A DNA stretch of 64,000 nt from Azolla caroliniana. Its lineage: Eukaryota > Plantae > Polypodiophyta. Below are positions 3,251 through 43,164 of the stretch, piece by piece. Position 1 is the first letter of the stretch; each line of letters opens with the position of its first letter. The position numbers were made by a program, and so were the translations under genes. The notes below the pieces were generated by a model that did no database searches, was not told the origin of the DNA, and was given only the letters and a program-made list of their open reading frames with translations. The stretch is from the NCBI GenBank assembly GCA_043228905.1, contig JBHGNT010000003.1, positions 19,034,001-19,098,000 on the forward strand, read 5' to 3'.

Positions 3251-3617
3251 AATTGTAATACATAATAGCAACCAAGTTGATATGATCTGTAATAAACCGT
3301 GATCCTTATCTTGTGTTCCTCTAAAGGTTCATTGGTAAGCACTTATGACAGAATTGGCCATTTAATTAATAGGGTGGAGATTTCTTCGACAAAGAGGCGG
3401 TATGACCATATTCATAGTAGAGGGAGTGGAAAAAATGTTGAGGTTGCCCACACACTAATTGAATGGGCGATAAATTTGTTCTACAATGTGTCCAACATCA
3501 ACAAATATGATTTTCCATGGTGGTGTGTGAGAGGGTTTGGTATTTTATACTACTATCCATGAAATTCAAGTGGGTTAGCATCAAGCCACTTTTTCAGTTT
3601 ACGAATGCAAATTTGTG

Positions 3618-3819: not shown

Positions 3820-4095
3820 AGTTCATGATGAATCAGCAATGGCTCGGTTTTGACTTCATTGGTTTGGCCTTATCCAAGTCAAACTCACTAAGGCTTAGCG
3901 AGTTTAGAGTTTTCAAACCTAGTGAACCAAACTGATCCGAACGATGCCGATCCCTAAATTGGTTTGGGAACCGGTTTGGTATGGCTCACGTTGAACCGAA
4001 CTGCGCTCAAACTCGTTAAGGAAACCCAAGCTTGAACTGAGCCGAGCTGAAATGCCAAATTGTTTCAGCTTGACTCGAGTTGTTTTTGACTACTA
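3820..4095. mobile_element. Possible decayed hAT-type MITE
   Basis: Cluster of degenerate gaaccgaac/gagccgagc/ggtttgg subterminal-like motifs in both orientations. No clear TIR or TSD. Confidence 0.3.
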
Positions 4096-4896: not shown

Positions 4897-5643
4897 CTAT
4901 TTGCCTCCCAATGTAGGGAATTGACTAATATCATGAATGGAAGGAGCTATTTCTGTTGCTCCAGAGTTATCGGAACCAGGGTTATTGTGACTACCTCCAT
5001 GACCTCGACCTCGACCTCCACGTCCCTGCCTACCCTTGAAATTGAAGTATCCTTCTCTATCCATAGGTTTCAAAAACTCATTGATGCTCACCGTCTAGAA
5101 AAAGCAAGGAAACAATGAGGAAGATCCAAATGAATCGTAATAGTAGTGAAAATTGAAGGAACTCCTAATGTACATAAACAGGATTAGAAAGCATTGACAT
5201 GAAGTAGTGAAAGCTGAGGAAGTCCCACATGTAAATGACTAAAGATACAACTGAAATTCACAATATGAGTTCTGAAAAAGTAAAGTAAAGAGAAGTGAGG
5301 AAAATCCACATGTACAGGAGCTAAGATGAAACAAAATACGAGTAGAATTTATGAGAAAGTAAAGAAAACCGAGGAAAGCCCACACATAAACTATTGGAGA
5401 TAAAACTGAAATTCCCAAGACAAGTTATAAAACAAAATGAAGGCAACCAAGAAAATAAAGAAGTATATATATATATAACTATTGAAGATAAAACTAAAAT
5501 CCCCAAGACAAGTTATAAAACAAAATGAAGGCAATCAAGAAAATAAAGAAGTATATATATATATATAACTATTGAAGATAAAACTAAAATTCCCAAGACA
5601 AGTTATAAAACAAATGAAGGCAACCAAGAAAATAAAGAAGTGA

Positions 5644-5675
<32 letters not shown>

Positions 5676-8600
5676 TCAAAACCCCCAATAGAACTTATGG
5701 AGACAAATGAAATTAAGGATAACCAAGTTGTAAATGAATGAAAATAGATGGTAAGAAACAAATTAAAGATACCTTTCGAGATTTGCCATCTCTCCCTGCT
5801 GTCTCCTTTTTCTTGCCTTTATCAATAACACTCTTAACAACACCATATAATGACGCGCATGAGCTGAAGAAACTAACTGATTCTCACAATGGAGTTGAAA
5901 TTAAAAAGTAGCATTTACCAGTTTCAGGAACACCTCATCTTCAATCTTTTTCTCTACCAGCTGCATTGATTGAAACTCCTTATCAAGCGTCACCTTTCTT
6001 TCCTCTGACTTTGAGGCTTCTAAGGCCTTCCTCTTTTCACTCAGCAACTTCTCATACTCCTCCAGAGTCATTTCCTGTTACGACCATACACATAATTATA
6101 CTGTCAGAAGTTACTTCCCGGTAGAGTAAGTCCATTAGCTTTACACAGGAATTTGTCTGTACACAATCCCGATGTGTGGCATAGACATAGATCTAGTGTT
6201 TGTGGACATAAAGGCCATACACAACTCTATATTATCAGTAGATACACTTAGCTAGAGTTTGTAGATATTGTTGAAAAAAAGGCAGTAAAAAACTAATCGA
6301 CAAGTACAGACAACAAAATAAAATCGTTTCTTTTTCCCTTTATTAGATATGGGAATGAAAATACACAGAAAACCCTATTGTATTTAGGGCACTCAAGTCT
6401 TACAAAATGATTAACAATGATAGGGAGATAGGTGCCCTTTTGCCCCTCTCTTCTCAGTTCTTATTACACTCTAATCTAAGAATCACCTCTATGCCAGTGG
6501 TAGTCTATGGCTTCATCATCAGCATTGTTCATACCATCAAACCAGAGGTGTTGGTTGAATAGACATTGCTCTGTATACTATTTACGAGGTCAGGGGTTTC
6601 ATTATTAGGCCGAGAGTTAGATAACTTCTATTTAAATGATCTCATGTAATTAGGAGTACGAGCATAACACATTGATGGATACTCTGAAGAAAACTGCCAC
6701 ATTGATGTAAACACTACCTTGTCATTCTCTACTTCTTTCATTTCCTCTATATTTTCAGCCTCTGGTTGTGAATCCTCTGGCTTCATAATTCTCTCAGATA
6801 TATCTGGCTTCTCATCTTCTAACTTGACAGCTTCAGGAATTTTCCTACTATAACAATTACGTTATATTTTAAACCAGAATATCAAGTCAAAATTACTTTC
6901 AACCGAATCCACACACACAAGGCAGTCACTTACTCTAGAACATTTTGGTCTATTTCAACACCCCAATTACCACGACCAGCCCCATCTTTCTTTACTCCAG
7001 TCCTGAATATAAAACATACCCTCAACACACAAAATTCAAGATATTGCAATTTTCCTTAGGCATTTAATAAACCTTGACAAAAAAAAGGAGCAATTTCTAT
7101 GAGAACGCCACATCTTCAATCTATTTGACAAATTTCTGCTCTTTTTGGAAGATCAGATTCATTAGAATTTGCGATTAATTAATCACGAATAATCACCATG
7201 CATGATCATATGCTACCAATCAATCCTTGCATTTCTCCATTTTTAACTAATTATTATGTGCCTGGTAAAGCGCTCCCACAGTAATGCGACCCTTTTCGGA
7301 CCAGATTGACGAGATTGAGAATAAATCTGTAACTGATTCATTATTGTGTATTTTTCTTATACCACATTGTAGAACATTCTTAATAGACACAAAAATGGGT
7401 GGCATTTTTGCAAACAGATATATGTGATGCATTTAGACTTTGTTAATAAACTGTGTAGCATTTTTTAAGATGTTTTCTATTATAAAAAGAAGAATACCCT
7501 CGCCCAGTTCCACTTCTTCGATCAAATTCTCGGTGTCTAGGATATTCCGATTCCTCTGCATCACCTGAGAAGCCATATCTACGACCACGGTCACGGTCAC
7601 GGCCACGACCACGGCTACTCCCACTATCGTTATATAGGTGCACACCTTCCTCTCGTATCATAACTGTTTTCTCTCCTACTCCCTCTCTTTGGTAATTGCT
7701 GAAACTTCGTTCTGTTTCCTCACGTAATTGGAACTTACTCTCTTGTATTGGGTGGTTGTAGTGTCCTCCAAAATCTCTTTCGCGATTCCTGAAGCCACCT
7801 TGACCCCGCCAGCTCTCTGCTTGGCCCACTCTTACTGTTGGAACACAACAAACATTCTCATACTGTTTATTGGACTAGTATCATTTGTCAACACAATTTG
7901 TTATCTTTCTATTCTTCAAGAAACCAGGTTGAATTAGCTGAGGTTGGCTTTCTAAAAGCCGCAAGGAGGCATAAACTCAGCAAATGCAATCAAGATTAAG
8001 GCTACTGTTGTTGTAGTGTTCATGACCAAAAGATTTTTAACATCCTCGGCGAAATCAAATATAACAAACTACAGTAAGCCTCTTCTGGCATACACAAGTT
8101 CAATTATGCAACCAAGTTAGATTAATTTTGCTAATCTATGTTTCATGATCACATTGGAAATATGTATCACCACAGAGAAACAATGGAAGACAAACAAATT
8201 ATTTTAATTGGAAAGTGACGAAGCATGATTGCAACAGAGGAATGAAATAATGCAGTTATACGCTCATGTGCCCCTAAAAGAGCAGATACCAATACGGCAC
8301 ATGAGTGGCTTGGAGTGCAGAACAAACAGTAGACTTCTCACAAAGATTCTTATCGGTAAAGCTGCAAACTCTTATCTAGTAAACTGTCTAGCGCACTAAC
8401 TTCTTGATCACTCTCTTCATTGATCATGTTTAGTTGGTGCTTGCCCGCATCAAAACTCCTCCACATCACTCATTCTCTTAGAATCCTGCTTCATCTTTTA
8501 TGTAGCATTATTCGATCGCCTGAATTCCCACATCATCCCCCTGTTTAGTTGGTGCTTGCTCACACCAGCATGCATTCACATTATCCAGTCTCCTAGACTT

Positions 8601-10958
8601 CTGCTTCATCTTTTATGTAGCATTGTTCGGTGACCTGAATTCCCACATCATTGTTTAGCACACATTCTGGCTCCCGATTAAAATAGCACATCCAGCCCAA
8701 TTTCCTGATGACAATGCAACTTTGGCTGTAGCATGCCATCTGGATCTCCAGCACAATTGGAATCACACCATTTGGCTAGCTTTGTCCTTTGTCCTTAAGT
8801 ACCCTAGAATATGCATCCAAGCTCGCCAATAACTCTTCTCCAGATCGGCTGTGAATACTGCCATCGACACTCCTACGCATAGCCTCTCAACCAGAGTCTA
8901 ATGTTCAGAATTGTTGTGATAGATGTACGTTGTGCAGCAATATAATACAGTGCATTTGTGATATTTTAAAACTTACATTGTATGATGCGACAAATACAAT
9001 GATAACAAATCCTGTTATTCAATTTAAGCATAAAAATATGCCAAACATTAAGTCGTTATGAACGTGTGACGCGGCAAAAATATGAAATGATACATTAACA
9101 TCTTCGAAATACCAAATAAGCTATGAGACCGAAAAATTACATCCAAAGACAGATTGGCAATGTACTATATTTTAAATACGATGACAAAAACTTCCTTTGA
9201 TGCACCCCTAATCTCAAACAGAAGAGTAGAAACCCAGATCCCTCGGCTTGATCCGACCAAATCATCTACATACAGCATTAAGATCACTATCTGCTCGTCT
9301 TTTTTAAGACATAGAGGGAAATATTATCTTAATAACCAATTGATATGTTTTTCATAGGCAACTACCTCACGTTTGATGATATAGAAAAGAAAAATATTAT
9401 TTGAAATGCATACAGATCATATGATAGGACTCGTTAAAAGCAAAAAATATTGCAAACTGTTAGGTAGAAAGACATAAAGATGTGATGTTTCAAGGTATCC
9501 CAAAACAAGCAATGGACGTGCTATTCATAGGCCTTGACATCACATCCAAAGACAGAGAAACGAGGAGTAATATATACAATATACATGAATATAATAGGAT
9601 TCGCTAATGGCAAAACATGAAGCAAAGCAAGAAATACATACACTTCCGACAAGAATCACACATACACCAAGCATTCAATAGACAAACAGAAAACAACGTA
9701 AATGCAAGGAAATTTATAGTTCCAGCATTAAATTCTTGCTTTGTAGCTGTTATTTTGCCTTTTGCACGGAAACATGCATTAAACCCCTTTGTTAACACTC
9801 TTCCCCAGTTATTTGTGGAGAAACAACATGATTCTAGAGCCAATCTAATGGATCTCCAAGATTAACTCAATGCTTCAACATTGCAATTCGAATACTAGTG
9901 GGGAAAGGGAAATAATTAAACCAATCGTAGAATATAATTCAAAAGAGTAACATGAAAGCCTTGTTATATTTTCCAGGAAACAGGAAAAGAACCAGACAAA
10001 TAAATGGTAAATACAAACACCATAATTTACAATATTCATTCCTCGCATTAAAACTGTGCTATTAACAAATGCATATTAAGAATTGAATCTTTCTTTTAAT
10101 GTCATTGATTTGCCAAGTCCACGAAAAACACGAAACATTTTGAATCAATCAATGAGTTCCCTTACAAAAGAAACATTTAATACATATAATTGGAAAGCTC
10201 TTACATAGTTAAGACGCAATACTGGACTAAACTCGTAATTAACATAAATGCACTGAATCCAACACCATATGATTCAAAACATTATCATAAACACACCGAA
10301 TCCATGTTTTGAACAGTTGAATTTAGATAATGTCACTGAGGAAAACAAACGTTCAGGATCAATCCATCAGTGACAAGAAATCTTCCAATGACACTCAAAT
10401 TCTTCTCTGATTGATCAGGAGAGGGAGGATTATGGTATCGATTGAAAGAGCAATATAAAAACAAGAATAAAAAAGAAACACACACCATCCAAAGAGCAGC
10501 GCAAACAAAAAAAAGTCTCAAATAATTCGAATATACAACAGTATGCGGCATTCAATCAATGTGCCACAAACCAAGAAACAGCCATTCAAGAATTCACACC
10601 TAATTCAAAGATTAAAATCACTGCTGTCTGAGGTTGGCGAACAAAATGTTAACACGAATTACAGGAACACTGATCAATATCAATTCCATGTCCTTCCTAT
10701 TAAGAGAAGAAACGGTTAAGAATGAGTAAGAAATCTTTAAAAGAAGCTCCATTTCTTACCTGGTTGAAAAGGAGGAGGAGGAGGTCTGCTAGGTAGCTTT
10801 GCAGGAAGAGACTCGGTCAATCGTTGCTTCTGATTGTTGTTCAGATCTTTTGAAGGAGGAACAATGGAAGGTTGAGATGTTGCTCGTGCAAGGACATCCG
10901 TCGGATCATCGTCGTTCTCGTCATCTCCAAGCAAAGCAAAGAAATTCTGCGTGGCCAT
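4897..10958 (-). CDS. RGGA: RGG-repeat RNA-binding protein (HABP4/PAI-RBP1/SERBP1 family, plant RGGA-like), 7 exons, 381 aa
   Basis: Exons 10958-10760, 7834-7498, 7002-6934, 6844-6718, 6074-5919, 5832-5773 and 5094-4897 join at GT-AG boundaries into a 1146-nt open frame. Motifs: MATQNFFALLGDD (Stm1-like N-terminus), REFDRRSGTGRG, KKDGAGRGNWG, EMTLEEYEK, SINEFLKP, an RGG box, and C-terminal QFPTLGGK. The family call is firm; exact orthology to RGGA is not established. Confidence 0.93.
5392..5670. repeat. Intronic ~90-bp tandem repeat x3, each unit ending in (TA)n
   Basis: ctattg.agataaaact.aaat.cccaagacaagttataaaacaaa(a)tgaaggcaa.caagaaaataaagaagt followed by (at)n occurs three times in the last intron. 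Confidence 0.9.
8400..8830 (-). mobile_element. Ancient Copia RT/RNase H remnant in intron 1, with a ~110-bp internal duplication
   Basis: Minus-strand fragments HILGYL.TKD, WCDSNCAGDPDG and TKH resemble Copia RILRYLKGT, DSDWAGD and RTKHID. Positions 8428-8535 are repeated at 8543-8650. Confidence 0.5.
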
Positions 10959-11032
10959 AGCCAAAATGAGGCGGAAAGGGAAGCGGAGAGAGGAGCAAAA
11001 GAAACAACAACAAAAAGTTGGGAGGAATTAAC

Positions 11033-11317
11033 GAAATATTGGCGTTCCCATGAAGAAGAAGAAGAAGAAGAAGAAGAAGGCAAAAGAAAGAAGAAAGAAG
11101 AAGAATAAAAATCGAGGAGGAAGAAGATTCAGAAGAATCTGAAGAAGAAGAAGATTAAAATTGAATAGGATGAAATATTGGAGTTCCCATGAAGAAGAAG
11201 AAGAAGAAGAAGAAGAAGAAGAAGGCAAAAGAAAGAAGAAAGAAGAAAATGGATAAAGGAAAGAAGGAGATTAAAAATCGAGGAGGAAGAAGAAGAAGAT
11301 TAAAATTGAATAGGATG
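11033..11317. repeat. ~140-bp tandem duplication containing (GAA)n microsatellites in the probable 5' UTR of the RGGA-like gene
   Basis: gaaatattgg.gttcccat(gaa)n ggcaaaagaaag...gattaaaattgaataggatg occurs at 11033-11172 and 11173-11317. It is pyrimidine-rich on the coding strand. Confidence 0.85.
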
Positions 11318-16299: not shown

Positions 16300-16790
16300 T
16301 ATGACAATGATGTAAACAGAGAAAGAGATGAAGAGGATAAGAAACACAGAGATTGACGCGTTGAGGATCAAGAGAAACACAAAGATAGATATACAGAGGA
16401 TGATAGAAAACGCAAAGATAGGGATGAAGAAGATAGGAAATGTAAAGAAAGGGACGACGATGATAAGAAACATAGAGATAGAGATGAAAATGGTAGGAAA
16501 CACAAGGACAAGGATGACAATGAAAAAAAATGCAGAGATAGGGATGTGAAAGATGATAAGAAACACAGAGATAGAGATGTGGAGGATGAGAGAAGAAACT
16601 AAAAGGCAGAAACAATTATGAGAAAAAACTAAGAGATAGAGATGTGGAGGATGAGAAGAAACTAAAAGACAGAGATGATGATGAGAATCAACTAAGAGAT
16701 AGAGATGTGGAGGATGAGAATAAATCTAAAAGACAGAGATGATGATGAGAAGAAACTGAGAGATAGAGATGTGGAGGATGAGAGAAAATG
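16300..16790. repeat. Purine-rich ~27/57-bp minisatellite
   Basis: Recurring agagatagagatgtggaggatgaga.gaaactaaaagacagagatgatgatgag units. Confidence 0.85.
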
Positions 16791-18129
16791 AAGGGATTCA
16801 AACTGTCACGGACACACCAACCATGGACTACGATAGAGCATGGATGACGAGGCTATGTTCCTCATTAGGCTACAAATGTGGAACTAGAAGTGACAAGGCT
16901 AGGAACTCTAGAAGTTGGGATGAGACTATAAACTTAGGGAGCTAGCATTAACCGGAGAGCATTTAGACAGAGATGAAAAAGGAGACAAGATGGAATGGAA
17001 CAAGCAGACTAGATTGATGTGTTAATGATTGGTGTTGAATCCCTTGAAAGGGACCAAGGAAGTAACAAGTATTTATATTATGAGTTGAAGTACATGCATT
17101 AGAAACACCGGGACATTTGAAATAGGTAATATGTTGTATTCTCATTTTCATGACCGGTTGAGTTGTTACGAATTGTCTAATTTTGTCAAACTTTTAAAGA
17201 AAGGTATGTGCATGATGGATTTCTTAAGTGTAACATTTCATGACAATAAAACCGGTAGTCTTATATTCAGTCAATCACGTTTTTCTACCCAATTCTTTAA
17301 TCGCTAATAACTGAAAATCCATGCAATATTAATTGGATGTATCCTCATTCTACATCTGTGAGTGCATTTCTAGAGGTTCCGAATATGAAAGACATTTAAA
17401 ACAAGGGTTTTTTCGGTTTAGTGTGAAACACATGACACATAACATTTTGTTAGAAACTCTCGCATTCTAGTCATTGTCCAAGCATTACAAACAAATGATT
17501 CCAAGAAAATTGAATGGAGATTAATATGTAAACTTGTTCATTTCTATTAAACTCAAAGTTGCACAACTTATACTTTATGTCTAAAGTCATACTATCTAAC
17601 ATTCCAAGAGAGTCTAAGATCATAAAGTTCCTCTAAATATACTTTTTGTCTAAAGTCACACTACTATCGAAGATTCTTAGAATGTCAAAGTTCAACAACT
17701 ATGATCAAGTCATAGTACTATCGAAGATTCCAAGAGTGACAAAGTTCAACAATTAATATGTAACAATATACATTTAGCAATGATTCAAACAATATATATA
17801 CAAGACTCCAAGAAAGGTTAACGTCAAGAACAGATACAATAAAGAATTGTAAATTTTGCCTTCCTATTGATAGAGTTATGCCTTCCTATTGATTGTTAAA
17901 CACAGACACTATAACATATGTACCAACAATTTATGCATTTATCAAACGATTGACTCATACATGTATCCATATAAAGTTAAGCAACAATATATATACTCTA
18001 GAAATATACGACACAACTTAAATTAACATCAAGCTCGACTATATATTCGAACAAAAGAGTTAAGTACACAAATCATAACTTGCATTACTTAAATCTATGA
18101 GTTCCAAATTCATCATGTTCAATTACATT

Positions 18130-21100
18130 AAGCCATATGCAATAAATTTATCAACAAGTCTAGAATGACGGGCTCTTCTGGACTAGTTGATTGTTGTAGG
18201 TAGTCCTCATTGGCATTTTCAATACACGTAGTCGAATTTAAGATTTGTTCAAACTCTGGTATGTCTTCCAAGTCAACAAGATCCCCTGTTCTTCATCAAT
18301 TGGCTGAACCATTGGTTCTCGGGATGCTCGTTGGAATCTTTTTGTTTCGTTTATATGCTTGGCTCCAACTTCTTGGTCTTGATCTGGACAATCCCATATA
18401 CCTTGGATCTACATTTTGATGAAGTTGACTTGTTCAGAGTCCTCTAGCGCATAGTTCTTGTACATCTTTAGCACACATGTTGTCGTAGTACTTGAAATCA
18501 TAAAGCATGTCTATATTCCCTAGCCTTTAACACAAACCACAATAACGTCCATATACTATAATCCAAACATGTCCATAAAGTTATACACTATACATTTGCT
18601 AGAGAACAAATCTAGCACCTAGTCATTTGGGTTGGAGAAGAGCTCGATCAAGTAGTTGATCAATCTTTGTGGTTTTTGGTAAGGGTTAACTAAACTCTTA
18701 TCGCCGGATATATGGCGCAACTTTTTTGTCATGGCGGGGCACATGATATAATTGACAACACTCCTTTCATTCACATGTGCCCGCACCTTCTTCTTTGTGA
18801 TTGAGTCGTAGTAACGAACACAAATATGCTCAACCGCACTAACCATCCATTCGCCCAGACTACGTGTAATATGTTTTAATCCTGTCAAATTAACACATTC
18901 AATGTTACCAATGTTCAATTCTAATGTTTTTGCAACATATTTAAACAATCTTAATACTATAACTTACCAATGCATATGTTCGGTAGCATGATAACACGAT
19001 TTCAATGCAGTTGTTACATATAAAGATTGACCCATGCTGTGAAACATCACAATTCGCCACAACGGGTGCAAGGGTCAACTCTGCGAAGTCTTTCACCATA
19101 TTTTCTATTTGAGGATATTTGAAAGGCATATCGTCATACATAGATCCCGTGATGCGTAATCCGTATGGAATGTCTATGATTAACAATGTGCAGTGCCTTT
19201 TCAGGAATATGCTAAGCATATTAGCCACTTCCCCGTTGAACACACTATAGTGCAATTGTCGGAAAGGGTCGGCCCTGTGCTAAAAACTTTTAACTACCTC
19301 TGAATCCTCAGGCACATCGAGCTCTTTCCCTTTCATCATCCTCTTCTCGTATTTAGCTCTTTCCAAGTGCGTGATAAACGAACTTGGAATGCCTTCATTT
19401 GTATCACCTGTTTTTCTTCAAACGAGGTGGCTTCTGCAATTATCAACTCTATTAGGAATATTATTATAACAAAAGCACTTAAAACAACACAATACCAAGT
19501 GTTACAACATATCTAAAACTACAATTACACTTACCCATTCTCCAAATACAGTAAATAATTCTTCCAAAGACTTGTACGATGATGTTACTCGGCATGCCTG
19601 TTCAACTTCTTCCCATGTTTGCAGGCATATCTTCTTCATCATCAACTCTTGGATTTTCATGTATACTTTGTCAGTGATGAAATGTATAATTAGTCAAACC
19701 AAGATGATTTCTAAAAAATACCTACTTTTGGAATTCTGTGACCATCTCATCTAACAAAAACTCTTTTGTAGCCACTCGAGAAAGCACATATATTAATAAT
19801 TTGTCATCCTTGATTCCTTGTAACGATTGCCATGGCAAGAGCTTCATATCTTCAAGCAACTCTTCAATAATCAAATCACTCTTCCGTGACTTTGCCTTAT
19901 CTCTACCTGAGGGTCTAATTTGGCCTTCTTTGCCCGTTGACCTTTTATTTCTTGTAAGTCCCAGACCTCGCCAGTTCAAAATGCCAATTGAAACCACGAT
20001 CGTACTTTCTTAAGCCTTCCAATTTCGTGCTTTCGTCGATAGATATCCCAACTTCAAGCAAACATTGTCCGCACAAACCAAGATGGAGCTTGGGACCTTA
20101 TCTTTTCAATGTATCAAGATATTCATAATGAAAGAATCAAATCCTTTCAATACATGACATCGTCTGTCAATAATCATTGTCATTGTTATGGTCCAACCCA
20201 ACAACTTGGCCTCTTCATGCGTAAGTCCGACGTAAACTTTGCATTCAACATACTTGAAGAATGGTGTTAGTGGATACTCCTTCACAAGTTGTCTCCTGGC
20301 TTCAGTTGAATGAGAACCTCCAATGACATAATTGGTGTAATTGTCTGTTGAACTATATTTGAAATCCACAACTGTTGGACATTGGTCAGGGTCGACCATA
20401 ACCAAAAGCACAATAGTTGTATGTGGATTAATTTTCATTTTACTCTTCAAGTTCTTGACGTGCACCGAATTCGGTTCTGTTATTTCAAGCGGTCTTCTCC
20501 ATGTTACGGGGTCTATAGGTGGGTGATGAATAGATGTGATGGGAAGATGGAAGAGTTGACCGTTCCGCACAAGCTTCGTCTTAACAATATTCTCTCAAAT
20601 TTTATTCTATTCAAAAGTACACCAGAGGAGATCTGACCACCTGGAGGGACAACCTCCAGTTCCTCTTCCTCCTCCTGTGAATATTCGAGAAGTTTGACTT
20701 CTTCCTCCTCAGGTTTTTGTCTTTTCTGGTATTTTTTCTGCTCCTGTTTAGATTTTCGAGACTGCTTTGGTGGCTTCTTGTCTTGTTTTGTTATCATTTC
20801 ACCGGTAATATAAGGTCGAAGAGCAACAATTAAATTACTCTTCGTTCGTAGATCTTTTTGAAGAATTTTTGGGTGCCTAAATTCTATAATGAGGTTCTCC
20901 GCCTCCACAAGTACACGCCATGTGCCACCTGAGCTCTCAAAGTCGATATGGATATTCGGTGAATCATTATCCTCATACTCGATATTGCAAACTTTTCCAT
21001 AGGTAAAAGATTTACCTGGCTCTTTCCTTTTCCTTCAGTCTTCGCAAATATGAGGAGTAGAGTTCCATCTTCTTTGACATATACCAAGATCCACTCCAAA

Positions 21101-21192
21101 CTTAAATAATTCTTTATTTTCTGCTCATTCCTCTTTTCTTCTGGAAGCATTATTTTCTTTCCCTTGGTGTTTCCGACGGAAGATTTCAACAT
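18130..21192 (-). pseudogene. Decayed multi-exon gene: ParB/Srx-like domain + helical linker + beta-class N4-cytosine/N6-adenine DNA methyltransferase (N6_N4_Mtase-like)
   Basis: ATG at 21192. ParB-like HVKNLK..M...YVIGGSHSTEARRQL...CKVYVGLTHEEAKLL (YVIGGSHS 20330-20307). MTase motif IV LLIIDIPYG (DIPY 19174-19163), W.K...VSAVEHI, NPYQKPQRLINYLIELFSNPND*VLDLFS (18690-18601), then after a probable intron TTTTCVLKM..N..LEDSEQVNFIKM*I. Several GT-AG introns, stops and frameshifts. The 3' end is approximate. Confidence 0.8.
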
Positions 21193-22005
21193 TTCGTCAC
21201 CTCACTCAAATAATGCTTTCCTCGACTTGTCTTTCAAATTACTCTCCATTTTGACATGCTTTTGCGGAGACTGAATCTTTAATTTGGAGGGAACTTTTTG
21301 TGTCTAAACAAATGTGTTGATAATAAATTACAAATAAATTCCATATGTTTTTTGTCTTTCTTCTATGAACAATTTGCTTCAAGGCAGATGTTAAAATGAG
21401 AAAGAGTTTTGTCCATTTTTAGTAACGTCTTTTTGTTTCTCGAGTGCTGCTTTTCAGATGTCTTTCCATTCAAGTAGAGCTTCTTTGTTTTCTGTTGACC
21501 CTTATGCCTTGTCTAGTAGCTCATATTTCTCAATCGAGGAGTACAATGTTCCAAGTCCAGTAAAGGGTTTGCTTGAATGATCAAATGTTGATAATGATTC
21601 TAGCTCTAACTCACTTTTCTCAATCGATCCTTATAGGAATGTGCCAAATACTGGTTTGCAATGTGCTAGTAGTGAGTTGAATGAATTAGGCATATTGTCA
21701 TTCATTCAAGGGACCTCATAATGGTAGAATCTATAACTTCCTATTAATGATGTAGTCACTCACATTTGTTGGGTATTTTAAAAATAAAATAAAACATTAG
21801 ATCATTATATTACAAGCATTAGCGATATCACCAATGACAACATGGCCATTTCATCACATTGACGAAATCGTACAATTGGTGTGGCATACATTAGATGGAA
21901 GTGGATGAGGATTTTATGATATGATGAATTAGGAGGGGTACTATATTCATTAGTGTAGGAAAGCAAGAATAGTATGTGAAAATCTATAATACATCAAACA
22001 AATCT

Positions 22006-22548
22006 TTAGTAGGGTCTCTGGCCAATGTAATTGCCTGGGGGGTTGTAATTGCAAATGACATATGTTGCACCACGGTTGGAGGCACAAGCACGAGCAACGC
22101 ATCCAACCCGACGTGTCTTGGCCCACACCACTTGGGTGTAGTGGCCACATTCTTTCCCCCAAGCACAAGTGTTTGTCCTATAATTGTAGTATTGCTTCTC
22201 AGATATCCATGATGCTAGAGCTTGGCCAGGTGTTGCTAAGGCTCTAGTGCTAGTCCAATACCAATAGAGGTTCTCACCATAGGGCCCATTGGAATGGCGC
22301 AGGTTACCAGAGCAACCAGCTCCAACCCTATCTTGGTTTGCGGCATATTTGGCGGCGAACGTTGCCAATGTGTTGTCCCATATTAGCAATGGAACACCTA
22401 ATCTTCGCCTCTCTACATTATGTGCGCTTAGGAACTTGTCTCTTTGTGTTTGAGCTATGCTATTGATGGAACAATTCATCAACACTAATGGCAGAATGAG
22501 AAGTGCATACTTAATTAAGTTATGTTGCAACATTTGGTTTGTCATCAT
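22006..22548 (-). CDS. PR1: Pathogenesis-related protein 1 (CAP/SCP domain), intronless, secreted
   Basis: Signal-peptide-like N-terminus, FLSAHNVER, LIWDNTLA, HSNGPYGENL, CGHYTQVVW, VGC, ICNYNPPGNYIGQRPY*. First ATG at 22548 (alternative at 22533); the ORF-track start at 22572 is a TTG. Confidence 0.95.
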   Translation of the reverse strand: MMTNQMLQHNLIKYALLILPLVLMNCSINSIAQTQRDKFLSAHNVERRRLGVPLLIWDNTLATFAAKYAANQDRVGAGCSGNLRHSNGPYGENLYWYWTSTRALATPGQALASWISEKQYYNYRTNTCAWGKECGHYTQVVWAKTRRVGCVARACASNRGATYVICNYNPPGNYIGQRPY

Positions 22549-22672
22549 ATTAAGTGGTTGTTCAGTATTCAACTAAAACTATAAGTGGATGCTACCAAGT
22601 GTATCTGATTACCTTCTGTGTGTAATGTGTATGTGTATGTGCGTTTGTTTGCCTTTGTGGATAGTATGGATC

Positions 22673-42297: not shown

Positions 42298-43164
42298 TGT
42301 CGAGATATTTCGCAAGTGCGTGTGGGAACGAGGCGGGACCGCGGGGGTCTCGAACCAAAGAGCAAGCGAGGGAGGAGAAAGAGAGAGAACCTGCTACGCA
42401 GGACCGGGGATACACAGGGACACGGCCCTTCAGCACGGAGAACGCGAACAGACACCGACACAGACAGATGCGAACGACTAAATACGTATATTAACAAAAT
42501 GGCTAACACAACTACAACCCTCGATGGGGCACAGGTTGGTTACAACCGAACAGGCCGGCGAACAGATGCCGATGCCTGTTCGCTTCGACGCAAAAAGGGG
42601 GGGGGTAGCAGGTCGGAGGTGCTGCCGGAAGCACTCGGGCGTTCCTCGAAACAGCGCGAGCCTCCTCGGAACCCTGCACAGAAAGCTATGGAGCTCAAGA
42701 AGGAAGGGAACAGAGAGAGAAGCGTCCAGAAACGGTCCGACAGCACTTCGTCCTCTCTGCGCGAGATGCCTGCAACAGCTCTTTCCTCCCCCTTATATAG
42801 GCCGACGAGCAGGCCGTCATGTCAGCTTTATTCCCTGTCCCTTTCGAACAGGGATCCGCTCCGTTCTTCACGCATCCGCGTAGTTACGCCGCCGACTCGT
42901 GCAGTTCCTTAGCTCGCGCGCGCGACCGAAAAGACTGTTCGCGCGGTCTTTGTCTCCACTTGTGTTAGGGCCCGTTCCTGCCGATTATCCTCCTAATTCG
43001 CTTCTATGTACAACTTGGAGCGTGCGCGCGTGAAGAACCGGTTCCCACACCTTGGTGCGCCGATTCCGCTTATGGACGGTTTTCTTCACGACATCCGCCC
43101 CCACCTAACCGCGCATCCTCCGGTATGCGCCAAGAGAGTTGGGACGGAGAAAACCGGCCCGTCT

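Follow-up and report, generated by a model that had tools for sequence, protein, structure and literature searches.

A probable Sola1-like transposon remnant in Azolla caroliniana with intact relatives that encode a predicted ParB–methyltransferase fusion protein

We analysed a 64,000-nucleotide stretch of the Azolla caroliniana genome (GenBank assembly GCA_043228905.1, contig JBHGNT010000003.1, positions 19,034,001 to 19,098,000 of the forward strand; hereafter the window), in which a preliminary description had noted a broken, intron-containing gene joining a ParB/Srx-like domain to a prokaryote-type beta-class amino-methyltransferase. The gene, at window positions 21297–18131 on the minus strand, almost certainly lies in a Sola1-like cut-and-paste transposon that has decayed and suffered internal deletion; intact relatives of this element carry both domains in one spliced gene, which is divergent from the transposase gene and separated from it by arrays of a palindrome. 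For these relatives we lean towards a self-targeted mechanism, in which the cargo protein would bind its own array and write N6-methyladenine (6mA) there.

Mapped on an intact relative, L006, the window gene consists of five exons (Table 1) that are 72–81% identical to it at the nucleotide level and contain nine in-frame stops and 12 frameshifting indels, a few adjoining ones of which may be alignment artefacts. Six-frame reading recovered all of the peptides quoted in the preliminary description, on the minus strand and in the order given: GGSHS of YVIGGSHS (20321–20307), DIPY of VFNGEV...IIDIPYG (19174–19163), PYQKP (18684–18670), DLFS from 18612, and TTTTCVLKMYKN. The GT–AG introns described there were found at all four donors but only two of the four acceptors, since introns 1 and 4 of the window copy end in AC and AA, dead splice acceptors. 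Motif I reads FSS (DLFSS) where intact copies have FSG (DLFSG). Together with the stops and frameshifts, these lesions bear out the earlier call of a pseudogene, and the window copy itself is a functionless fossil. The ParB/Srx-fold domain lies inside exon 1, at about 20560–20130, and of 97 candidates found with this piece, 40 proteins reached E ≤ 0.001, the best of them E 3e-51 at 83% identity, so the signal is not a chance one; the matches came mostly from metagenome assemblies at 61–83% identity, with one annotated Ceratopteris protein at 66%. An annotated Ceratopteris protein (P0019) also matches the window across the exon 1–2 junction. Pfam searches of the window fragments gave PF01555 at E 0.14, and the only hit above the cut-off was a neighbouring CAP gene.

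The suggestion that a mobile element carries the gene is supported on both sides, where a terminal inverted repeat (TIR) of the family and a transposase stub flank it. By blastn and profile search, the window TIR matches the ends of L001, L004, L006, L007, L009, L010, L027 and L060. The stub aligned at 54% over 59 amino acids in a tblastn search of the window with the L001 transposase (E 1.7e-4), and by blastn it matches L001, L002 and L058. Neither the rest of the transposase gene nor a second TIR was found in the 64-kb window.

Table 1. Features of the transposon remnant in the window
Feature	Position	Strand	Remarks
TIR, cargo-gene end	17104..17140	+	starts AACACCGG; nhmmer E 1.9e-10
3' untranslated and subterminal region	17141..18130	-	blastn to L060: 17779-17104 (71%), 18138-17959 (83%)
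Exon 5	18131..18491	-	end of S-adenosylmethionine (SAM)-binding core (TT..C..K...N...LE) and acidic tail; 1 stop, 2 frameshifts
Intron 4	18593-18492	-	GT donor, mutated acceptor
Exon 4	18594..18881	-	target-recognition region, PYQKP, motif I; 1 stop, 1 frameshift
Introns 2, 3	19534-19434, 18967-18882	-	both GT-AG
Exon 3	18968..19433	-	linker and first methyltransferase half, motif IV DIPY; 1 stop, 2 frameshifts
Exon 2	19535..19673	-	helical linker (KVYMKIQE...); no lesion found
Exon 1	19726..21297	-	N-terminal domain, basic/acidic linker, ParB/Srx-fold domain, helical region; 6 stops, 7 frameshifts
Shortened intergenic region	21298..21454	.	about 160 nt; palindrome array and most of divergent promoter gone (compared with L001, L058, L060, L073, L006)
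DUF7869 transposase 5' stub	21455..21631	+	first 59 codons; divergent from cargo gene

Intact relatives, which the preliminary description had thought might exist, were found by a metagenome scan with the protein P0002. The scan gave 114 confirmed stretches, the best 80 of which we used as loci; all 80 belong to one accession series and are thus not independent samples. Locus L001 (7870 nt) contains a complete, compact element of 7.6 kb between TIRs at 180–216 and 7737–7773 (37 nt, 97%; 34–37 bp across the family). Its transposase is a single frame on the minus strand (PF25273 DUF7869, E 1.7e-52), and its cargo gene, on the plus strand, yields one frame of 935 amino acids when four GT–AG introns are removed. 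Splicing was attempted for the 44 of the 80 loci that passed an anchor filter, and with the same four intron positions and phases 30 of them splice through; the other 14 end prematurely, for the most part where the contig ends, and three of these are clearly broken copies. All 30 spliced loci have DIPY, and 29 have DLFSGTGTT. In L001, L035, L037 and L062 the gene with both domains lies inside the TIRs, on the strand opposite the transposase, in agreement with the fusion described earlier; since annotated single proteins from Ginkgo (P0043), Chara (P0048 and P0117) and Adiantum (P0084) also hold both halves, the fusion does not depend on computed splicing alone.

Transposase and cargo form a fixed pair. 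Of 13 loci with 2.6 kb or more of upstream sequence, 11 have a divergent transposase, and a methylase was found, under the filter used, in 35 of 39 loci with at least 2 kb downstream; among the four that the filter missed, L009 and L010 splice completely and L047 has matches. Trees of the two genes from 10 loci have the clades (L001,L002) and (L077,(L017,L020)) in common and differ inside a third group, and the corresponding identity matrices correlate with a Spearman coefficient of 0.78 (10 loci), as shared descent alone would likewise give. In sixteen families at 60–93% identity, no variation occurs in the D, second P and Y of motif IV, nor in QKP, DLFSGTGTT or LEKD. The median ratio of nonsynonymous to synonymous substitution rates (dN/dS) was 0.031 for the methylase and 0.016 for the ParB part, values that come from only six and two of 120 pairs, because 114 and 118 pairs, respectively, were saturated at synonymous sites; these comparisons point to strong purifying selection on the cargo gene.

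Most of the element ends found begin with AACAC or AACAT, and the flanks beyond the TIR vary among loci. In L035 the element is bordered by a 4-bp target duplication, TGTT, and when this is counted once the interrupted retrotransposon frame continues. The DUF7869 transposase, with conserved acidic motifs DGMD, QLDNT..ENKN and GHTHDxID, is one that we provisionally take to be Sola. Lanisha was also considered for the transposase and dropped, being grouped with EnSpm/CMC and having CA..TG termini. In L045 (4033–6332) and L009 (near 3960–4052) the end of an element directly adjoins a truncated transposase from its own family, which suggests insertion into its own kind. In the fern-type cargo a conserved domain of roughly 140 residues (EW.L.Y ... 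YED.DS ... L.PYI.G; L001, position 3874 to about 4300) opens the protein; it gave no Pfam match and is absent from the Chara types.

The methylase part was examined by profile and by predicted structure. PF01555, the profile expected from the preliminary description, was recovered above its cut-off in L001 exon 4 (E 2.2e-9), P0043 (E 7.6e-18) and P0087, and the motif order DIPY, YQKP, DLFSGTG, with motif IV preceding motif I, occurs in 29 of 30 spliced loci and in the window. A model of the full fusion protein P0087 (predicted local distance difference test score, pLDDT, 81.8) matched CcrM in its C-terminal part at Z 23.8 (root-mean-square deviation, rmsd, 2.8; 220 residues aligned), followed by BceJIV (Z 23.1), MboIIA (21.8), PvuII (20.1), N4CMT (19.9) and METTL3 (13.9), a CcrM-like predicted fold that agrees with the proposed beta class. 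METTL3 and MTA1, which share the permuted fold, scored Z 13–14 against the P0087 model, about 10 Z units below the DNA beta-class enzymes. Motif IV could be read in 57 of 150 profile hits, as DIPY (23), DAPY (6), DVPY (6), DIPH (5), DFPY (4), NIPY (4), DLPR (3) and six others once each, and SPPY occurred in none of the 150.

These variants bear on the likely mark, since SPPY is typical of most N4-cytosine (N4C) enzymes and DPPY of N6-adenine (N6A) ones, according to the available text of PMC8885841. The motif DxPY keeps the first and last residues and the second proline of the canonical motif IV. In N4CMT, as described in the accessible parts of PMC10406627, the first proline contributes a main-chain carbonyl and the first residue its side chain, the tyrosine is modelled as stacking, and CcrM makes equivalent bonds. 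Because the first proline supplies a backbone carbonyl, an isoleucine in its place need not kill activity, and DIPY could keep the contacts. The earlier proposal was of a writer of either N4-methylcytosine (4mC) or 6mA. With a catalytic motif of DxPY and never SPPY, the predicted enzyme is nearer in motif to 6mA writers than to the DN4MT1 and N4CMT enzymes cited there, and 6mA is the likelier product. Adenine enzymes give the best matches among solved structures and in NCBIfam, every one of them far below the family cut-offs.

The ParB/Srx fold proposed earlier was recovered in the same P0087 model, in which residues of about 86–240 match eight chains of the ParB/Srx families at Z 8.7 to 5.8, above unrelated rows: PadC (Z 8.7, rmsd 3.3, 99 aligned), KorB (8.0), plasmid ParB-N (7.9), SerK (7.5), two sulfiredoxins (7.1 and 6.2), SbnI (6.4) and Atu1540 (5.8). 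The Z-scores are middling, yet the consistency of family among the matches makes the predicted fold persuasive. The KorB and plasmid ParB alignments extend into the helical middle region, at high rmsd (9.4 and 5.6), and its alignment with the DNA-binding part of KorB marks this region as a predicted DNA-binding module. P0087 aligned with the window family at an hhalign probability of 99.7 (E 5e-26, 38% over 145 columns), and the ParB domain was undetected by Pfam, PHROGs, NCBIfam and PDB sequence profiles. Residues 270–470 of P0002 retrieved a ParB cluster (0.92) from the ESM Atlas, ranked after fungal DUF3723 and clusters of unnamed sponge and mollusc proteins, a hint that ParB-like proteins may form a broader family on the mobile DNA of eukaryotes. 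ParB CTPases use an arginine-containing GxxR motif. The motif here is GGSHS in fern-type proteins, GGGH(S/T/C/Y) in Chara types and GGCNS in Ginkgo, without those arginines, and for this reason we make no claim of nucleotide hydrolysis and do not retain the earlier designation of a nucleotide-binding module.

Between the two divergent genes, the intact loci carry arrays of the palindrome CGAT(A/G)C-NNN-G(C/T)ATCG, a likely candidate for the binding site of the cargo protein. Exact matches occur in 38 of the 80 loci. With one mismatch allowed, the upstream zones (47.7 kb) contain 165 sites and the remaining 258.7 kb contain 13, an enrichment that is descriptive and not an independent test because the pattern was derived from the same loci; of the 27 loci that reach at least 1.7 kb upstream, 23 have one or more sites at this tolerance, up to a maximum of 15. 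Spacings cluster at 31–33, 40–43, 50–53, 63 and 72 nt, with a best period of 10.4 bp in a scan of 6–20 bp (R 0.77; R 0.51 on 28 distinct spacings, nominal p 7e-4). The outer palindrome bases follow clades (TCCGATGC, CTCGATAC, GTCGATGC), and the observed/expected CpG ratio is 1.07–1.49 in five arrays versus 0.58–0.76 elsewhere in those contigs. The window has no exact palindrome and only six matches at up to two mismatches, against 4.86 expected. A second array in L027, downstream at 5157–5584 and past the TIR at 3280, is probably the promoter of an adjacent copy.

Sequencing runs were compared on L001, three of them probably RNA (a status that is guessed, as none is recorded as RNA) and one other. 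All three probable RNA runs contain the exact joint of the 68-nt intron 2, which was not seen in the fourth run; one run shows the intron 3 joint at low depth, and one has a loose poly(A) end shortly after the stop codon. Relatives are spliced and polyadenylated in these probable RNA runs, the contigs of which come from related copies in one study, many less than 95% identical.

In the self-targeted mechanism that we favour by a little, a dimer of the cargo protein would recognise the two-fold site CGATRC-N3-GYATCG, the 10.4-bp phasing would align several dimers on one face of the helix, and the methylase would modify adenines in or near the palindromes. Binding and marking could then maintain the shared promoter in an open state or protect it from cytosine methylation by the host, and transposase expression would be favoured. 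More tentatively, and with somewhat less than even confidence, we suggest that these elements may form an ancient streptophyte Sola1-like lineage, from Chara to ferns and Ginkgo, with a read-and-write epigenetic system of its own, in which a ParB-derived dimer would sit on a helically phased, parS-like array at a divergent promoter and the fused enzyme would stamp 6mA, with an anti-silencing outcome.

Other readings accept the transposon and dispute the enzyme. Its methylase may be weak or dead and the protein an array-specific binder that regulates the promoter or helps transposition, an unlikely reading that nevertheless deserves some weight: the first proline of motif IV is lost almost family-wide, some members lack the aromatic residue, and Iyer et al. 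describe inactive N6A methyltransferase domains in DIRS1 retrotransposons (available sections of PMC4738411). Set against this are the catalytic and SAM motifs, invariant in the 16 families with a dN/dS near 0.03, and the role of the lost proline in solved relatives, which is to supply a backbone carbonyl (accessible parts of PMC10406627). An active enzyme might instead write 4mC, the CpG cytosines within the palindromes being one possible target, where it would block host 5-methylcytosine; each palindrome holds at least two CpGs and CpG is raised in the arrays, although this partly follows from how the arrays were defined, beta-class folds span both chemistries, as the PvuII and N4CMT scores show, and the Ectocarpus paper discussed below leaves 4mC or 6mA open in its available passages (PMC12477816). 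We consider this improbable in view of the absence of SPPY from the 150 profile hits and the adenine specificity of the best, if distant, solved and NCBIfam matches.

Action on RNA or single-stranded DNA, such as the transcript of the element itself, appears very improbable. METTL3 and MTA1 do share the permuted fold, and acquired N6A enzymes have repeatedly shifted to RNA according to the sections of Iyer et al. at hand (PMC4738411), but the DNA beta-class enzymes score far higher, the partner has a ParB fold, and a double-stranded array lies beside the gene. We give still less credence to a decayed host gene, a domesticated writer like DN4MT1 that merely sits among repeats. For the window copy this is refuted by the TIR and transposase stub that bound it, and in the family the flanks differ among loci and many divergent families coexist; introns, expression and the wide range among plants are what such a gene would also have, and some named homologues, known as proteins alone, could be domesticated.

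Several observations weigh against the self-targeted 6mA mechanism and the transposon lineage on which it is built, beyond the common accession series of the loci. The fold evidence comes from P0087, a Chara-like relative, and not from the window family itself; the ParB scores of Z 6–9 are middling, and a model of the 186-residue L001 ParB piece was poor (pLDDT 50). Motif IV departs from the canonical (D/N/S)PP(Y/F), DPPx occurring in one of the 57 readable hits, and in some members (the three with DLPR) it is without its aromatic residue. The palindrome is absent from four of the 27 loci and occurs just once in the L001 assembly, and the array spacings are not independent, given tandem duplication and shared descent. 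A target duplication was found in one of four two-ended contigs, with mismatches in L001, L037 and L062, possibly due to assemblies that collapsed copies. In the runs compared on L001 there was no clean intron 1 joint and one contig retains the intron, so that the RNA data do not show a single ParB–methylase transcript; retention of intron 1 would give a ParB-only product. Finally, the homologues in Chara, Riccia, a lycophyte, Adiantum and Ginkgo are known as proteins and not by transposon context.

These homologues were found with a methylase profile, which matched 513 representatives at E ≤ 0.001; among 30 that were looked up, Chara braunii, Riccia sorocarpa, Diphasiastrum complanatum, Adiantum nelumboides and Ginkgo biloba were named, the others being metagenome or assembly proteins, and none of the 30 carried a brown or red algal label. 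Seed plants are represented by Ginkgo P0043 (Gb_37443; DIPH and GGCNS variants) and P0174 (Gb_14868). Viral contigs yielded no relative with either query, and phage matches were about 25% identical and limited to the methylase part, so that no close donor was apparent among them at the sequence level. According to the available sections of Iyer et al. (PMC4738411), ParB-linked methylases occur in phages and algae, with few in land plants. Two gene models have unusual structures: that of Chara P0048 (GBG86584.1) spans 1825 amino acids with two ParB–methylase units in tandem, and that of Diphasiastrum P0081 (KAJ7514498.1) joins a cytochrome P450 to part of the methylase, probably an annotation spanning an inserted copy.

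The closest known system is the Ectocarpus element Sola1-1_Ec32, as described in the available passages of PMC12477816, which carries a 1104-residue protein with ParB and N4C/N6A methyltransferase domains opposite the transposase, AACCG termini and a 4-bp duplication; its transposase best matches Sola1-1_PPa of Physcomitrella, and its authors propose self-binding and self-modification. Compared by description, it resembles the plant family in having both domains in one protein (1104 versus 935 amino acids in L001), encoded on the strand opposite the transposase, and AAC termini, and differs in its host (a brown alga versus streptophytes), its length (21.5 kb versus 7.6 kb for L001) and its 282-bp imperfect TIRs (versus 34–37 bp); the supplement calls the cargo Ectocarpus-specific, and a binding array is not mentioned in the passages available. 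Both the self-marking idea and ParB–methylase transposon cargo are therefore already published for Ectocarpus, and on that description the land-plant elements share the design. PAG2 and PAG3 of red algal Plavaka, Mutator and Zisupton elements (bioRxiv 10.1101/2025.02.11.637652, as far as its available text goes) are also transposon cargo with a PF01555 methylase and a ParB-like domain, with tandem inverted-repeat arrays beside the ParB gene as the proposed target. Unlike in the plant family, the two domains lie there in separate genes on EnSpm-type elements, a methylase joined to a SET domain and a ParB joined to a 2OG oxygenase; no SET domain was found in the 48 plant-family proteins scanned. 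Our literature search, which did not extend to Repbase Reports, subscription journals or the bioRxiv supplements of the Bostrychia paper, found no description of the land-plant lineage or of a phased array.

Among enzymes, the bacterial beta-class N6A methyltransferases M.CcrMI, M.BceJIV, M.MboIIA and M.RsrI share the fold, the placing of motif IV before motif I and the QKP segment; they are about 20% identical and have DPPY, in contrast to the DxPY, ParB fusion and introns of the plant family. Marchantia DN4MT1a/b and bdelloid N4CMT are likewise prokaryotic-type beta-class amino-methyltransferases in eukaryotes. They are described, in the accounts available in part, as host genes with (T)SPPY that write 4mC, DN4MT1 without extra domains and N4CMT with a chromodomain, whereas the plant family is transposon cargo with DxPY and a ParB domain. 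VANC of the Arabidopsis VANDAL elements resembles the function proposed here in being an element-encoded factor that acts on its own sequence and counters silencing, but it is an unrelated protein; in the sections available it is said to induce hypomethylation, and no description of it as a methyltransferase is given.

The surroundings of the remnant in the window are rich in repeats. An intact PR-1/CAP gene (22006–22572, minus strand; PF00188, E 8.8e-20) lies about 370 nt beyond the transposase stub, in the place where the remaining transposon should be, and purine-rich tandem repeats of 30 and 63 bp (16316–16788) lie a few hundred bases outside the TIR. Nested long terminal repeat retrotransposons occupy about 30300–56200, with Copia- and Gypsy-like frames (labels from open-reading-frame reading) inside one another and repeat pairs at 42298/48816, 37759/52687, 35035/54518 and 30391/57771. 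A spliced host gene at about 7400–11100 on the minus strand, with start MATQNFFALLGDDE and RG-rich exons, presumably resembles SERBP1/hyaluronan-mRNA-binding proteins.

The value of the finding lies in the intact relatives and not in the window fossil. Self-marking by transposon amino-methyltransferases has so far been a proposal in algae, going by the partly available sources above, and the plant family makes it easier to test, with intact elements of about 8 kb, a 935-residue protein, an explicit candidate target, probable expression in living plants, and homologues in the tractable species Ceratopteris, Riccia and Chara. If true, the mechanism would be an enzymatic anti-silencing route unlike that of VANC, would give 6mA or 4mC a specific origin in plants thought to be poor in such enzymes, and would amount to a localised, transposon-made source of 6mA in land plants with a named, clade-variable target (TCCGATGC, CTCGATAC, GTCGATGC).

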